Source: a virus | Lineage: Duplodnaviria; Caudoviricetes | Length of the DNA: 26,240 nucleotides | Virus record (IMG/VR): IMGVR_UViG_3300033416_000029 | Location: 1-26,240 of that record | Direction: 5' to 3' (one strand) | Shown: positions 20,960 to 26,033 of the stretch, piece by piece | How the letters are laid out: each line of letters begins with the position of its first letter | How positions within the stretch are numbered: the stretch's first letter is position 1 | The notes under the pieces: model-generated | Databases searched by the model: none | What the model was told of the DNA's origin: nothing | What the model saw: only the letters and a program-made list of their open reading frames with translations | Program-made: the position numbers and the translations under genes

Positions 20960-21187
20960 TTACTTACCCCTCGCTCTAATAGCATGTGCTATAGCTGCTT
21001 TATTTTCGATACATGTTTCTGCAATCTTCGCACACTGTTCTTTTTCATCAGCCCTGATTAGATTTACGAAGGTTTCAAGTTGTGTTTTAGTGAATGTGTA
21101 CTCATGCCCTTGCTCATACACATTTTTGTTATACTCGTACTCAACTGCACCACACAATTTAGCCAATTTAAGTATCTTGCCTGTCAT
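20960..21187 (-). CDS. Hypothetical phage protein
   Basis: C-terminal EKEQCAKIAE...AHAIRARG motif common in phage early ORFs. Confidence 0.7.
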   Translation of the reverse strand: MTGKILKLAKLCGAVEYEYNKNVYEQGHEYTFTKTQLETFVNLIRADEKEQCAKIAETCIENKAAIAHAIRARGK

Positions 21188-21188
21188 A

Positions 21189-21485
21189 TCAACCTTTCAT
21201 TCCCTCTAAGCATTTTAAAATTGCAACTCTGGCCGCCTCGTATTTATCTCGATGATCTTCCGCGTATGCTATAACGCTGGCTCCATCCCCCGATGCTGTT
21301 GCAAATGAACCATTAGAATCAATTAATAAATGTTTATCGATGAAAAGTCTAAAACATCTGGCATCGTCATCGGCTAGCCAAATTGTATAAGTGCCTCCTA
21401 CAATATCGGTAACTTCTACGGAAGCATCAATACCGTACTTTTCTGCCACTCCATTGCTTATCTCAATTTTGTCTTGTTGGTTCAT
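21189..21485 (-). CDS. Hypothetical phage protein
   Basis: GGAGG RBS; closely packed with neighbours. Confidence 0.7.
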   Translation of the reverse strand: MNQQDKIEISNGVAEKYGIDASVEVTDIVGGTYTIWLADDDARCFRLFIDKHLLIDSNGSFATASGDGASVIAYAEDHRDKYEAARVAILKCLEGMKG

Positions 21486-21607
21486 TTTTTAGCCTCCTCC
21501 TTGTATTTAAGTTTAGGTTCGCGCCATATGAACCAGCCCAACCATAGCCCCATTACAATCCCAAAACTGTATGCAGCGATTACTACCCATCCCGGAATGT
21601 TCATCAT
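21482..21607 (-). CDS. 41-aa membrane protein, not in ORF track
   Basis: MMNIPGWVVIAAYSFGIVMGLWLGWFIWREPKLKYKEEAKK*; ATGA overlaps at both ends. Confidence 0.6.
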   Translation of the reverse strand: MMNIPGWVVIAAYSFGIVMGLWLGWFIWREPKLKYKEEAKK

Positions 21608-22083
21608 TCAGCCTTTCTTAGTGCATATAGAGGTGTAGTGCATTCAATGGTTTGTTTCCACATAATCCCATAGTCGCCATTATTTTTAAGCATTCCTATT
21701 GCTACTGGCTCACCTAACCTTCTCTCAATCTCACTCTCAACATAAGCATTAAGATCGTCTAGTGTTGGATAAGTTAAAGTCATTGCATCTTTTAGAGCCG
21801 CATTAAAATCATCATCTAGCGTATAGTCATACTCAAACTCGATACGATTTATTGCCGCTCTAAAATTATTATTCTCGAATTGTGATAGTAATAGGCATTC
21901 TTGTAGGAGTTCCATGCGCTCCAAAACATCGTCACTCGCAAATTGTGTTTTCTGAGTTAATTTACACTTAATTTCCGGCTTTAATGTCTCATATTGAGAT
22001 TTTAAACTTTCGAGTTCTATATACGCCGACTTTGCTGCCGATTCTGCATTCTGAAAACTAATTCGCCATGACTCGTAACTCAT
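21604..22083 (-). CDS. Hypothetical phage protein
   Basis: GGAG RBS before MSYESWRISFQ; ends EPVA...TPLYA. Confidence 0.7.
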   Translation of the reverse strand: MSYESWRISFQNAESAAKSAYIELESLKSQYETLKPEIKCKLTQKTQFASDDVLERMELLQECLLLSQFENNNFRAAINRIEFEYDYTLDDDFNAALKDAMTLTYPTLDDLNAYVESEIERRLGEPVAIGMLKNNGDYGIMWKQTIECTTPLYALRKAE

Positions 22084-22168
22084 AATATACTCCATATAAT
22101 CAATAACTTAATATTTAAAAACACACCTGACCAATTAAAAATAAAATACGTCATGTGGCTAATGTTAG

Positions 22169-22420
22169 TTATACGTCTTGCCCTGTCAGCGCTTTCCACG
22201 ACCGAGCTAGTTCTTCGGCCTGCGTCCCCGGCGTAAATTTTCCATCACTCGTAAAGTGCCAACTTCCGCAATACTCACGGCGAATCTCGCGCCTTGTCGT
22301 TTCGCTTTTCTTCCACCACAAAAATCCGGTTTCTGTTGTTACATCAACATCGGCGAAATACTCCAAGTCAATAGCGGTTCTCCCTTTGGTTTTTGTCCGT
22401 TCAAAATTACTTAGCTTCAT
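22169..22420 (-). CDS. Cassette 1 ORF, hypothetical (83 aa)
   Basis: GGAG RBS before ATG 22420; stop TAA is the complement of TTA in core GTTATAC. Confidence 0.7.
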   Translation of the reverse strand: MKLSNFERTKTKGRTAIDLEYFADVDVTTETGFLWWKKSETTRREIRREYCGSWHFTSDGKFTPGTQAEELARSWKALTGQDV

Positions 22421-22432
22421 TTTCTTCTCCAC

Positions 22433-22493
22433 GTATAACAGTGCCTTCAACGGCGACCGCCCTTACGGGCGTCGCGTTAAGGCGGCGTTAGCC
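22433..22493 (+). repeat. attC site 1
   Basis: R'' GTATAAC, L'' CTT[C]AACG, L' CGTTAAG, R' GTTAGCC; 61 bp. Confidence 0.9.
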
Positions 22494-22657
22494 CGCACAA
22501 AATCCACTATTGGAACATCGCACCAGACGCCATCCTCAAACCTCACTTGGAGAACCCGAAATCGTGAGTGTTGCTGCATATCAATAAAGAAGGCCGCAGG
22601 ATGTTTTGAAACCTCTCGGTCGCCTGCGGGTATATCGAGCCATCGAATGTCTTGCAT
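22463..22657 (-). CDS. Cassette 2 ORF, hypothetical (64 aa)
   Basis: GAAAGG RBS before ATG 22657; RVLQ...WCDVPIV motif; reads into attC1. Confidence 0.65.
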   Translation of the reverse strand: MQDIRWLDIPAGDREVSKHPAAFFIDMQQHSRFRVLQVRFEDGVWCDVPIVDFVRANAALTRRP

Positions 22658-22673
22658 CTTCAACCTTTCTGCG

Positions 22674-22740
22674 GGCTAACCCCGCATTGAACCCGGACTC
22701 GCGGAAAAGCGCCGCGAGCCGGTTAATTTAGACGTTAGGG
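22674..22740 (+). repeat. attC site 2
   Basis: R'' GGCTAAC, L'' ATT[G]AACC, stem CTCGCGG/CCGCGAG, L' GGTTAAT, R' GTTAGGG; 67 bp. Confidence 0.9.
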
Positions 22741-22994
22741 GCCTCGAATGTCAGCGCCTCCATCTTTGCGATGCTCTTGCGCAGAGACACAATCTTCGCC
22801 TTGCGCATTTCCTCTGCCCTGGCAAGCGCTGCTTCCGGCGTCAGGTGCCAGTCGTTACCGTGTGCGTATTGGCTGCCGTACCCGACATTCCCATAGGAAA
22901 TCATCGTTTCACTGCACAACTCCGCATCTACGGCGATGACCCCCTTTGTCAGCGCGTACTGAGTGATGTACGCCTTAATCTTCTCGTCCTTCAC
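22728..22994 (-). CDS. Cassette 3 ORF, hypothetical phage-type protein (88 aa)
   Basis: AAAGGA RBS before GTG 22994; ends EAPNV* inside attC2. Confidence 0.75.
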   Translation of the reverse strand: MKDEKIKAYITQYALTKGVIAVDAELCSETMISYGNVGYGSQYAHGNDWHLTPEAALARAEEMRKAKIVSLRKSIAKMEALTFEAPNV

Positions 22995-23020
22995 TTCGTT
23001 TCCTTTCCGGGGCGCACGGC

Positions 23021-23090
23021 CCATAACCATTCGGTCAACCGGACAGCCCTACGCTGAGCTCAGGTCTGCCGGTTACCTCAGACGTTAGCA
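23021..23090 (+). repeat. attC site 3
   Basis: R'' CCATAAC, L'' GGT[C]AACC, L' GGTTACC, R' GTTAGCA; 70 bp. Confidence 0.88.
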
Positions 23091-23091
23091 G

Positions 23092-23295
23092 TCAATCTAA
23101 TAGCTCATGTTTAAATACAGCCCACATTTGCCAGTTTTGTATTTCCGTTTCAGCTTTTTCAGCAAGCCGAGCTTCTTCTTGTTTGTGTCTTTCTATGGCA
23201 AGCTCTGCACCAGCTTCTGTTTTATGCAAGCTTAGTGTCGCAAAAGCGCTTTCATGTATGCAGTCGTTATAAACAGCAGCGTAAATTTCAGTCAT
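23092..23295 (-). CDS. Cassette 4 ORF, hypothetical (67 aa)
   Basis: GAGAGGA RBS; fully contained between cores. Confidence 0.75.
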   Translation of the reverse strand: MTEIYAAVYNDCIHESAFATLSLHKTEAGAELAIERHKQEEARLAEKAETEIQNWQMWAVFKHELLD

Positions 23296-23318
23296 AATAG
23301 TCCTCTCAATATTGTTAC

Positions 23319-23375
23319 TGCTAACCCATCCATCAAGCGGGACTTCTATGAAGCCCCTTATGTCAAACGTTGGGC
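23319..23375 (+). repeat. attC site 4
   Basis: R'' TGCTAAC, L'' CAT[C]AAGC, L' CCTTATG, R' GTTGGGC; 57 bp. Confidence 0.88.
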
Positions 23376-23632
23376 CTCATTCCCTTGATGTTCCCGAGCT
23401 TGCCTTTCGCCTGTTCCAGCCGCATGCGCAACGAGGCAACGTCCCGCTCTGCTTCTGCGATCAAAAACGAGTGTGCGGCTTCCCATGTGTCGTGCCAGTT
23501 ACTCCAGTCCGAAACCTTGTTTTCCCTACTACTCCGAAATCCATTTCGCGCCGGTAGCACAACCTGTTTGTCTGTTTCGCGATCGACTTCCAGCGCCTCT
23601 ATCTTGTCGAATCTTGTCCTGTACTTAATCAT
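23363..23632 (-). CDS. Cassette 5 ORF, hypothetical phage-type protein (89 aa)
   Basis: AAAGGA RBS before ATG 23632; ends GMRPNV* inside attC4. Confidence 0.75.
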   Translation of the reverse strand: MIKYRTRFDKIEALEVDRETDKQVVLPARNGFRSSRENKVSDWSNWHDTWEAAHSFLIAEAERDVASLRMRLEQAKGKLGNIKGMRPNV

Positions 23633-23662
23633 GCTTTTGTCCTTTCTTCGTAACCAACTGAG

Positions 23663-23728
23663 GCCCAACCCATCGGTGAACCGGACCTTCGCAAAAAGCG
23701 CGAAGGCCGGTTACCTCAGACGTTAGAC
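23663..23728 (+). repeat. attC site 5
   Basis: R'' GCCCAAC, L'' GGT[G]AACC, stem CCTTCGC/GCGAAGG, L' GGTTACC, R' GTTAGAC; 66 bp. Confidence 0.9.
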
Positions 23729-23902
23729 ACCTAATTGCGCACTATTGCTAAACCAGTCGCTTATCTTCGTTGCCAGTTCTTTTAATTTAGCTGGTCGTTT
23801 GCTATTGCAAAACCGTATTAAATCCCAAAACGCTGTCGCATCTTCTTCTGTTTCAAGAGTAATGGTTATAGGTTGAAATTTTGCTTTTTGTTCAAGTTTC
23901 AT
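23723..23902 (-). CDS. Cassette 6 ORF, hypothetical (59 aa), not in ORF track
   Basis: AAGGAG RBS; MKLEQKAKFQPITITLETEEDATAFWDLIRF...SNSAQLGV*; stop is the complement of TTA in GTTAGAC. Confidence 0.75.
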   Translation of the reverse strand: MKLEQKAKFQPITITLETEEDATAFWDLIRFCNSKRPAKLKELATKISDWFSNSAQLGV

Positions 23903-23922
23903 TTAAGTCTCCTTTAGATCGT

Positions 23923-23977
23923 GGCTAACCCTGCATTGGTATGGGACGCTTCGCGCCCCACAATTCAAACGTTAGGC
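23923..23977 (+). repeat. attC site 6 (slightly degenerate L boxes)
   Basis: R'' GGCTAAC, L'' ATTGGTAT, stem GGGACGC/GCGCCC, L' CCACAAT, R' GTTAGGC; 55 bp. Confidence 0.8.
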
Positions 23978-23998: not shown

Positions 23999-24202
23999 TT
24001 ACAGCTTCGTCGCTTCAATAAGATTATCAATATGTACATTAATAGCTTCCCCAAGATTGCTAACTGCTACAACATTGTTTGCATTGCCAAGTGCCACAGC
24101 AATATCTCTAATAGCCTCTTTAGCTTCTCGTATAGCTTTGTTCTTGGCGCAAATACGACCATACTCCGCCATCTTTTCTATGTTGTCGTAATTATCAATC
24201 AT
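23999..24202 (-). CDS. Hypothetical protein
   Basis: AAAGGA RBS; helical 67 aa. Confidence 0.65.
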   Translation of the reverse strand: MIDNYDNIEKMAEYGRICAKNKAIREAKEAIRDIAVALGNANNVVAVSNLGEAINVHIDNLIEATKL

Positions 24203-24228
24203 ATCAATGTCCTTTGTAAATGTTGTAG

Positions 24229-24738
24229 TTAAAACTGAATATCGTCCTCAAAATAATCAAACCCAGACCCGCCTGCTGCAGGTTTAGCCGCAGCTTGTGC
24301 CGGTGCTGGTCGTGCTTGACCCTGACTTGGTGGCGCTTGATTGTAATCGCTATCACCTCCGCCCTGATCCATACCGCCATCATAGCTGGCATTTGACCCG
24401 GCGCTGTCACGACCACCCAACATTTGCATCTGGTCAGCGATAATTTCCGTGGTATAGCGGTCCTGGCCTTCCTTGGTTTGCCATTTGCGCGTTTGCAAGC
24501 GGCCTTCAACATATACCGGACGGCCTTTTTTGAGATACTCTCCGGCAATTTCTGCAAGCTTGCGGTACATCACAATATTGTGCCACTCGGTACGCTCCTG
24601 CTTCGCGCCTGATTTGTCTTTCCAGCTGTCAGTCGTTGCAATACTAAAATTACATACTGCCTCGCCATTAGGCATGTAGCGCACTTCCGGGTCGCGCCCT
24701 AAATTGCCTACCAAAATCACTTTATTCACTGATGCCAT
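24229..24738 (-). CDS. ssb: Single-stranded DNA-binding protein
   Basis: [21 protein letters not shown]...TEWH...[14 protein letters not shown] fold, G/Q/A/P linker, acidic tip EDDIQF. Confidence 0.97.
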
Positions 24739-24739
24739 G

Positions 24740-25228
24740 TTATGCCGCCTTATCTATTGGCGTTAGTTTTTCTTTACGTTTTGCCATGATTGAGTCATAG
24801 CCTTCCGGTGTTGCCCATGCAGGTAATGCAGGTGTTTCTTTAATGTGCTTATACTCATCTAGTGCAACCCATACATTAGGGAGTTGATAAAGATAGCGAC
24901 CTATGCCAAACATGACAGCAGCACGTTTAAACGCATCACTAATCGCCCCTTTTTCTGCTTCTATATCGCTATCACCTGCACCATTAGAGCGTGTAATCCA
25001 AGTGCCATCAACCAATACGATAATCTCGCAAATGGTCTTATTATCTGCATGGCTGTATCTGCATTGCCAGTTCATACCGAACACATCATCAAGCCTAGCC
25101 ATCACATCACGCGCGTCAATATAAGCTAGTGCAATACCTTTTGATTTATCTTTGCTGGTTGCACCTACACGCCAGCTAATTGACTTCACTGGGAACGGTC
25201 TTTTAAGTGCTTCTAATAATTCATTCAT
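24740..25228 (-). CDS. Rad52/Rad22-family (Sak-like) single-strand annealing protein
   Basis: [42 protein letters not shown]. Confidence 0.9.
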
Positions 25229-25373
25229 GATGTTCACCTTTTGCTAATGCTTCTAAGTATTGCTGATATTCCTGTTGTTCTTTCTGGTTATGTAGCCAGC
25301 ATTCATATTCTTCATGGTTAAGTTGCAATTCCCGATCATCACCATAATCATGAATGTATGAATCATTACTCAT
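25221..25373 (-). CDS. Small acidic protein (50 aa), not in ORF track
   Basis: AGGAG RBS; [50 protein letters not shown]; overlaps both neighbours. Confidence 0.6.
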   Translation of the reverse strand: MSNDSYIHDYGDDRELQLNHEEYECWLHNQKEQQEYQQYLEALAKGEHHE

Positions 25374-25534
25374 ATCAAACTCCTAAATGCCTCTAATGCT
25401 GACTGCTTCACCGTTAATCCAACGCTGCGATTCTTCGTGTAGTAGTCATAAAATATGTAGCCAATCATACTTAAAACTATGATGATGTAGCTGATGAAAA
25501 CGAACACACATAAATTATTGATAATCCAGTTCAT
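25370..25534 (-). CDS. Small membrane protein
   Basis: AAAGGA RBS before ATG 25534; one TM segment. Confidence 0.6.
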   Translation of the reverse strand: MNWIINNLCVFVFISYIIIVLSMIGYIFYDYYTKNRSVGLTVKQSALEAFRSLI

Positions 25535-25535
25535 T

Positions 25536-25919
25536 CTATTCCTTTGGTCGATAACAATACAAGGGTTTAGGTCTATAATCATTGCAATTCTTGTTACCTT
25601 TTATTTTGTTACATTTTGAACATAGAACTTGTAAATTTGTAAATTCAAACGTTAATTCAGGATAAAATTTACGAGGTTTTATATGATCAACATTTATTTT
25701 TATAGTATTAGATGCACATACTCCACATTTCATACATTTATACCCATATACAGATAAAACATTTTTTCTAAGCTCTTTCCATTCCTTTGAATAAAGTGCA
25801 GAGTTTGATGTTTTAGTTAAAATTGCAACTTCACAATCAGTCATTTTTGAAATTTTGTGCATTGATGAAATTTTCAAAGCTTTTTTGTTAAGTCTAATTT
25901 TTAACGCTTTTGTAGACAT
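25536..25919 (-). CDS. HNH endonuclease
   Basis: CMKCG, VDHIKP, NLQVLCSKCNKIKG motifs. Confidence 0.92.
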   Translation of the reverse strand: MSTKALKIRLNKKALKISSMHKISKMTDCEVAILTKTSNSALYSKEWKELRKNVLSVYGYKCMKCGVCASNTIKINVDHIKPRKFYPELTFEFTNLQVLCSKCNKIKGNKNCNDYRPKPLYCYRPKE

Positions 25920-25933
25920 TTGTTTCGCCCAAT

Positions 25934-26033
25934 AAAAAAGGCTTCACCTGGATACTCACCTTTAAGGTGTTGGTGGAGCGGTATAGTAACCGCCAGTATC
26001 CATGTGAAGCCTTACTATGTTTATTGCCACCAA
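25934..26033 (-). ncRNA. c4 antisense / P4 CI-like structured RNA with upstream complementary target sites
   Basis: 19-bp closing stem (25938-25956 with 25995-26013, 1 mismatch), two inner hairpins, single-stranded segments complementary to 26012-26018 and 26027-26033, U-tract after stem. Confidence 0.7.

Follow-up and report, generated by a model that had tools for sequence, protein, structure and literature searches.

We consider it probable that the locus described here is an integron array, made up of an attI-like site and six attC sites, whose genes are mirror-imaged, likely read by the leftward early transcription of a phage, and carried in cassettes likely moved by an outside integrase, most probably that of the host. 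The window, i.e., the whole stretch of 26,240 nucleotides analysed, is the entire viral record IMGVR_UViG_3300033416_000029, a linear contig estimated to be ~70% complete. Its rightward genes include a terminase, a P22-type portal and a coat protein, which points to a P22-like phage. A leftward gene run extends from 25919 to 20960 and comprises an HNH nuclease, an Erf-like annealing protein, an SSB and then small ORFs. Within it, six attC-bounded cassettes occupy positions 22169-23971, and the whole element reaches from about 22118 (attI region) to 23977. A preliminary, sequence-only reading of this DNA had recognised the six cassettes, but it had missed the putative attI of host type at the left end, as well as the complete phage integrons described below. 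The features are listed by position.

20960-22095, minus strand: downstream leftward ORFs, the first in the slot held by intI in complete integrons; three distant homologues, function unknown
22118-22174, plus strand: attI-like docking site, crossover G/TT at 22168/22169, at the downstream end of the leftward genes (weight matrix, alignment)
22169-22420, minus strand: ORF1, 83 aa, cassette 1 (22169-22487), stop in the R' of the attI junction
22433-22493, plus strand: attC1 (geometry detector; covariance model, 25.8 bits)
22463-22657, minus strand: ORF2, 64 aa, cassette 2 (22488-22734), stop 24 nt into attC1, cassette ends matching at 14/15
22674-22740, plus strand: attC2 (56.1 bits), with a 93% identical counterpart in each of two other viral contigs
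22728-22994, minus strand: ORF3, 88 aa, cassette 3 (22735-23084), member of a phage family without assigned function (phrog_22725, E 7e-20)
23021-23090, plus strand: attC3 (geometry detector; 44.0 bits)
23092-23295, minus strand: ORF4, 67 aa, cassette 4 (23085-23369)
23319-23375, plus strand: attC4 (64.2 bits), of the type filling host-family chromosomal integrons, at most 90% identical to Methylobacillus-family sites
23363-23632, minus strand: ORF5, 89 aa, cassette 5 (23370-23722), 72 homologues
23663-23728, plus strand: attC5 (49.7 bits), 82% identical to a site on a Cupriavidus plasmid, where the annotated gene is on the top strand
23723-23902, minus strand: ORF6, 59 aa, cassette 6 (23723-23971), 47% homologue in a phage integron
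23923-23977, plus strand: attC6 (geometry detector; 39.3 bits), distal array end, on the side nearest the putative promoter
23999-25919, minus strand: upstream leftward phage genes (67-aa ORF, SSB, Erf-like annealing protein, small ORFs, HNH nuclease)

All six sites show the anatomy of attC, namely an imperfect R''-L''...L'-R' palindrome with an extrahelical base on the L'' arm. The geometry detector, which replaced two stricter earlier detectors that had recovered 3/6 and 2/6 of the sites, returned exactly six attC, all on the plus strand, and none in 10 resampled whole windows or in 100 resampled array regions. The strand was fixed without using the ORFs, by means of three outside references: attC flanking intI, a covariance model and DNA matches in the host family. 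The covariance model was built from 41 of 47 candidate bacterial attC, pointing away from their intI, with the structure supplied by hand, and it scores the six sites at 25.8-64.2 bits on the plus strand (E 4e-4 to 5e-13). The sequence-only reading had taken the extra base in L'' to mean that plus is the attC top strand, and had named a minus-strand placement by such a model as the outcome that would speak against it; the only minus-strand hit at the six attC reaches 8.6 bits. Furthermore, attC upstream of intI point away from intI in all cases (95/95 viral, 66/66 bacterial), and the strand of the attC4 matches in host-family arrays agrees in the seven genomes compared by eye, so that geometry, covariance model and intI-flanking polarity all support the original strand call. 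The cassette ends match in 8-9 of the first 9 bases and, beyond the GTT, in 5-7 of 7 bases for cognate and 2-4 of 7 for non-cognate ends, as expected of units that were once circular; the R' and R'' ends of the cassettes are thus complementary, as a circular form demands.

The host of the phage probably belongs to the Methylobacillus family, which we take to be the Methylophilaceae, since the phage SSB protein is 84% identical to that of Methylobacillus arboreus and 80% to that of Methylotenera. At the DNA level, the ssb gene (24229-24738) is up to 83% identical over its full length to genes of this family, the best GenBank phage reaching 69% protein identity; it was probably acquired from the host. 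Among the 23 loci retrieved via the Erf-like gene, the closest (89%) carries a different ssb and no attC. In the array itself, attC4 and attC5 are 80-90% identical to integron sites of the Methylobacillus family. A search in which two candidates were scored per genome gave array matches in 82 of 201 family genomes, and the 150 listed of 240 matches all fall at attC4 or attC5 and none in cargo. A nucleotide search with the array gave no match in GenBank phages and one in plasmids, confined to an attC.

The left junction was compared with the attI regions of the same family, which share a CTA-N6-GTT core; IntI was found in 69/201 family genomes. In an ungapped weight matrix of 14 distinct cores, which anchored 24/30 loci, two of them wrongly, position 22168 ranks first of 1009 GTT sites (score 12.3; next site 10.4; training sites 2.6-22.8). 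A stretch of 53 nt at the junction also aligns to the attI regions of two host-family loci, L404 and L405 (z 5.8, 0/300 shuffles, as the best of 24 alignments), with z < 3 for most other host-family loci. A 78-nt attI profile HMM did not find the left junction. An attI at the proximal array end, as in canonical integrons, is therefore indicated by rank 1/1009 with a moderate margin and a negative HMM, and the evidence is moderate that the left junction is an attI of the host-family type. Given that the attC matches lie in host-family genomes and none in cargo, sites and dock appear host-like and the cargo does not.

It may be that the same cassette system is served by an integrase of the phage's own, its intI being located in genome sequence absent from the contig, or having recently disappeared from the position left of attI while persisting in a sibling phage. 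The contig is only partly complete, IntI is encoded at 72 viral loci, where in most cases intI adjoins attI on its left, and a second contig in a sequencing run (X1, possibly the source of this DNA) shares positions 22093-22142 and then continues leftward with other sequence, branching at the position where host integrons place the intI start codon. However, this branch is visible for 30 bases, too few to identify. A search for tyrosine recombinases (PF00589), positive in 14/14 control genomes, found none in the 26 kb of this ~70% complete contig, so that no intI adjoins attI within it and an unrelated ORF sits in the intI slot. In addition, the left junction resembles host-family sites without gaps, but phage-integron attI only with a gap introduced post hoc (rank 56 ungapped). 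We thus believe that an integrase of the phage's own is unlikely, and favour one acting from outside. Scans with the left-junction motif recovered, from metagenomes, the record analysed here plus two hits due to chance, and in degenerate form nothing from the viral collection; no close relative of the phage with another cassette set was found in the viral and metagenome scans, and no joint skipping a cassette was seen in the contigs of runs X1-X3.

Regarding expression, the layout suggests that the array is read from the leftward phage transcript. In the window, 12 sigma-70 matches were counted against 13.0 +/- 4.0 expected, i.e., no enrichment, and a simple scan gave no terminator on the minus strand. 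Between the best leftward sigma-70 match (26074-26047) and the HNH gene, close to the latter, minus-strand RNA from 25938-26013 is predicted to fold into a branched hairpin (z -7.2; no match in Rfam) that has outer arms of 19 bases and precedes a U run. It is possibly a terminator or attenuator of the early transcript, and could stop transcription from that promoter match. Rfam gave no match in the window as a whole. If the ORFs are expressed, the geometry makes the non-template strand the recombining one; every segment of the mRNA would then have a hairpin (-19 to -36 kcal/mol) directly ahead of its ribosome-binding site. One may speculate that these cassette hairpins affect recombination or translation, and the strand arrangement may bear on recombination or on how cassettes originate.

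A different source of transcription would be a bottom-strand promoter for each inverted cassette, located in the attC or the neighbouring cassette and independent of the phage operon. Antisense promoters are described for some Vibrio cassettes (10.1101/2023.11.21.568050), and one 9-of-12 sigma-70 match on the minus strand overlaps attC2 (22754-22725), but no such match precedes the other five ORFs. Moreover, self-sufficient cassettes need not follow the flanking genes, yet in the collections surveyed below the upstream flanking genes are co-directional with the cassette genes in 36/45 viral loci found by attC pattern and in 29/30 viral intI loci, compared with 6/34 bacterial loci. These counts make private promoters improbable, and they extend to other phages the earlier observation that the cassette genes read with the upstream phage genes. 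The phage transcript is hence retained as the likely source.

In canonical integrons the cargo lies on the top strand and is read from Pc, whereas here 6/6 ORFs lie on the bottom strand. Counted from the G of the GTT that R'' has on the bottom strand, the predicted starts of ORF1 to ORF6 are at 19, 23, 33, 30, 37 and 27 nt, and a Shine-Dalgarno-like word precedes each of them, the weakest at ORF2, so the proposed arrangement of six genes opposed to attC with ribosome-binding sites just inside R'' was recovered. ORFs 1, 3 and 5 have longer candidate starts inside R''/attC, the assigned starts being the predicted ones. At the other end, ORFs 1 and 6 stop on the TAA of R', and ORFs 2, 3 and 5 cross the crossover and end inside the neighbouring attC; as the latter borrow their stop from a neighbour, their C-terminal tails would change on reshuffling. 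A contig in runs X1 and X2 shares the 41 bases at 23301-23341 (ribosome-binding site and leader of cassette 4, R'' and L''), but departs from the window in its ORF on one side and in its attC interior on the other; the segment appears to be a leader plus half-site reused with an unrelated gene.

That the cargo consists of phage genes, a point that the sequence-only reading had proposed to check, is supported for ORFs 3, 5 and 6 by their phage homologues, but not for ORFs 1, 2 and 4, for which protein searches gave no homologue. ORF3 has 61 homologues; it is represented in 26 GenBank phage records and 0 plasmids, and the relatives with available DNA lack flanking attC (6/6). For ORF5, the viral relative nearest to it (86%) sits in an inverted cassette of another phage array, where both the attC and the neighbours differ, and four more distant viral relatives are not attC-flanked; the gene was not found in the 201 host-family genomes. 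In the three Atlas clusters nearest to ORF5, few members have a record, and 60-100% of these are viral, which we treat as a lead. ORF6 has its 47% homologue inside a complete phage integron (L002/L305), again in an inverted cassette. The families of ORF5 and ORF6 thus recur as inverted cassettes beside other neighbours, which suggests that they may move as units. An R'-encoded, Asn-containing tail is present in 21/32 of the closest ORF5 homologues versus 4/40 of the others, and in 21/30 versus 3/31 for ORF3, counts made at the protein level in which rank depends partly on the tail.

These observations also bear on the view that the array holds ordinary bacterial cassettes from the host integron, gene-less or with the real genes on the plus strand. 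Host-like attC4, attC5 and attI fit this view, as do the missing homologues of ORFs 1, 2 and 4 and two plus-strand ORFs, one of 118 aa spanning cassette 5 and one of 174 aa spanning cassettes 1-2. However, three plus-strand ORFs tested gave no PHROG hit, ORF3 and ORF5 are conserved on the minus strand in their 61 and 72 homologues, and among the 150 listed of 240 host-family matches none reaches more than ~20 nt past an attC. The view is largely refuted for cassettes 3, 5 and 6, and we regard it as very improbable overall. Normal cassettes inserted backwards are hardly credible: top-strand recombination is described as inverting cassettes relative to Pc at low frequency and at some sites (PMC5027507), but such an event flips attC together with the gene, and the uniform normal polarity of attC to attI and the matching R'/R'' ends place the inversion of the gene inside the cassette, unless the strand calls are wrong.

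The mirror-imaged arrangement was then sought in larger collections, as the sequence-only reading had suspected a distinct class of phage cassettes and had suggested tabulating gene against attC orientation in phages and bacteria. One asymmetric attC pattern was run on both collections (130 of ~420 viral and 135 of ~2400 bacterial stretches). Among the matches listed, and with sites having <250 nt of flank left out, a bottom-strand Shine-Dalgarno word and start within 50 nt of R'' were present at 76/125 viral and 12/158 bacterial sites, and a top-strand start after R' at 3/122 viral and 30/162 bacterial sites. By a heuristic call, again among the matches listed, 98 of 136 complete viral cassettes were inverted, 14 normal and 24 unclear; the respective numbers for 123 bacterial cassettes were 16, 89 and 18, and for 54 complete host-family cassettes, called in the same heuristic manner, 2, 50 and 2. 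The suspected class is borne out by this contrast, and inversion of the gene relative to attC is general in phages. Since related phages were each counted separately, the very small p values for the viral/bacterial contrast overstate independence. Two mostly inverted arrays from bacterial genome assemblies (L223 and L232) lie on contigs carrying phage tail or terminase/portal genes.

PHROG hits were obtained for 18/60 viral inverted ORFs (drawn from 129) and 9/60 bacterial ORFs (from 106; p 0.08), and at E 1e-10 for 14 and 4, respectively (p 0.02), i.e., viral inverted cargo modestly exceeds bacterial cargo. Among the viral hits are DNA methyltransferases, PAPS reductase and RNA ligase, and they confirm that bottom-strand ORFs are real genes.

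The arrangement is also found in complete phage integrons. The query with a viral IntI gave the above 72 loci, 41 with attC upstream of intI, in which a bottom-strand start inside R'' was seen at 55/95 attC and a top-strand start at 1/93. Among 56 complete cassettes, 35 were inverted, 13 normal (8 of them in a single locus, L335) and 8 unclear. The start of the phage intI is mostly 60-85 nt away from the crossover, intI and cargo share a strand, and genes mostly run toward attI and intI; most simply, the layout may be read as a single phage operon of co-directional genes with the cassettes, attI and intI at its end. Movement as a unit was seen in three independent pairs of phage integrons: within each, 600 nt of intI and 45 nt of attI are shared without a difference and divergence sets in right after the GTT, at G/TT, the footprint of insertion at attI. 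In a quick IntI tree with one viral query and few bacterial lineages, 31/35 viral rows form one group (SH-aLRT 95), with L350 apart, a grouping that we treat as a lead. No LexA-type box was found in 49 phage intI-attI gaps (50/72 loci, bacterial-type loci left out), a result to which we give no weight.

IntI is described as recombining the folded bottom strand of attC with double-stranded attI (PMC5371416; PMC5027507), and for this reason the polarity of each inserted cassette is fixed relative to attI; it is also reported to be active on sites outside integrons (10.1101/2022.09.11.507474). In the mechanism that we propose, host IntI would act in trans on a phage dock at the downstream end of a co-directional operon, where intI, if present, would be the next gene on the bottom strand. 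Only bottom-strand cassette genes would be read from the upstream phage promoters, and cassettes of this orientation would consequently be kept by selection. New cassettes would enter at the promoter-distal end and be the last in the transcript, the reverse of bacterial integrons, and the cargo would come largely from small phage accessory genes coupled to attC sites. A wider proposal, which we find credible but on balance lean slightly against, is that phages run a mirror-image integron branch of their own: a pool of phage accessory genes joined to host attC would be served either by a phage IntI clade or, in trans, by the IntI of the host; its genes would be expressed from phage operons, but in a bacterial integron they would be silent or antisense, and some families would show cassettes in the course of being created.

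A number of known systems share parts of this organization. Clusters of attC without intI and integrons have been published for phage genomes, and five phage attC were reported to recombine with attI1 via the bottom strand (PMC9892861). With two or more attC and no nearby intI in the contig, our array falls among such CALINs, and DNA methyltransferase cargo is common to that work and the present viral set. However, the published phage CALINs differ in gene polarity and our array has an attI-like end; the accessible text of PMC9892861 calls its arrays typical, with no mention there of inversion relative to attC, and the complete integrons it reports, from temperate phages, are of bacterial types, whereas here genes are inverted and many phage integrons have intI co-oriented with the cargo. 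A literature search with little coverage of subscription journals returned no report of inverted phage cassettes. The sedentary chromosomal integrons of the Methylobacillus family share attC anatomy and sequence, attI core spacing and small single-gene cassettes with matching ends, but 50/54 of their genes are on the top strand; in our array genes are on the bottom strand, no intI is adjacent, and expression is predicted from the distal side, with the newest cassette last. Insertions at attG, as described (10.1101/2022.09.11.507474), likewise involve IntI in trans, on GWT sites, with inserted cassettes expressed from resident promoters, but the dock here is attI-like over ~50 nt, rather than a bare GWT, and appears to have been used repeatedly. 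The locus is an integron variant with normal sites and polarity to attI, mirror-imaged genes and a phage-specific distribution.

In the sources available, the asymmetry of attC is held to orient genes toward Pc and integrons are treated as bacterial devices (PMC5027507; PMC5371416), many bacterial cassettes are reported to be anti-phage (10.1101/2024.07.02.601686), and the origin of cassettes is listed as an open question (PMC8618304). If a widespread phage version is real, phages would shuffle their own accessory genes by the same recombination chemistry, and there would be two cassette pools with common sites and enzymes and separate expression. Gene families that are both free and cassette-borne, such as that of ORF5, found on two unrelated attC, offer before-and-after pairs, and if attC-less ancestors survive in other phages, as the wider proposal holds, the origin of cassettes would become testable. 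To this the present locus adds a link to a culturable host family via attI, attC and ssb, as well as cargo seen free and cassette-borne. One hypothesis holds that cassettes originate by reverse transcription; here, such an origin would yield the non-recombining strand first, a testable contrast with bacterial cassettes.

Finally, two further arrangements were seen around intI. In one viral contig (L006:1350-2685), five tandem near-copies of a single cassette (~90% identical, 316-base period) adjoin intI, and in one phage integron (L306:8078-8973) attC lie on both sides of intI.
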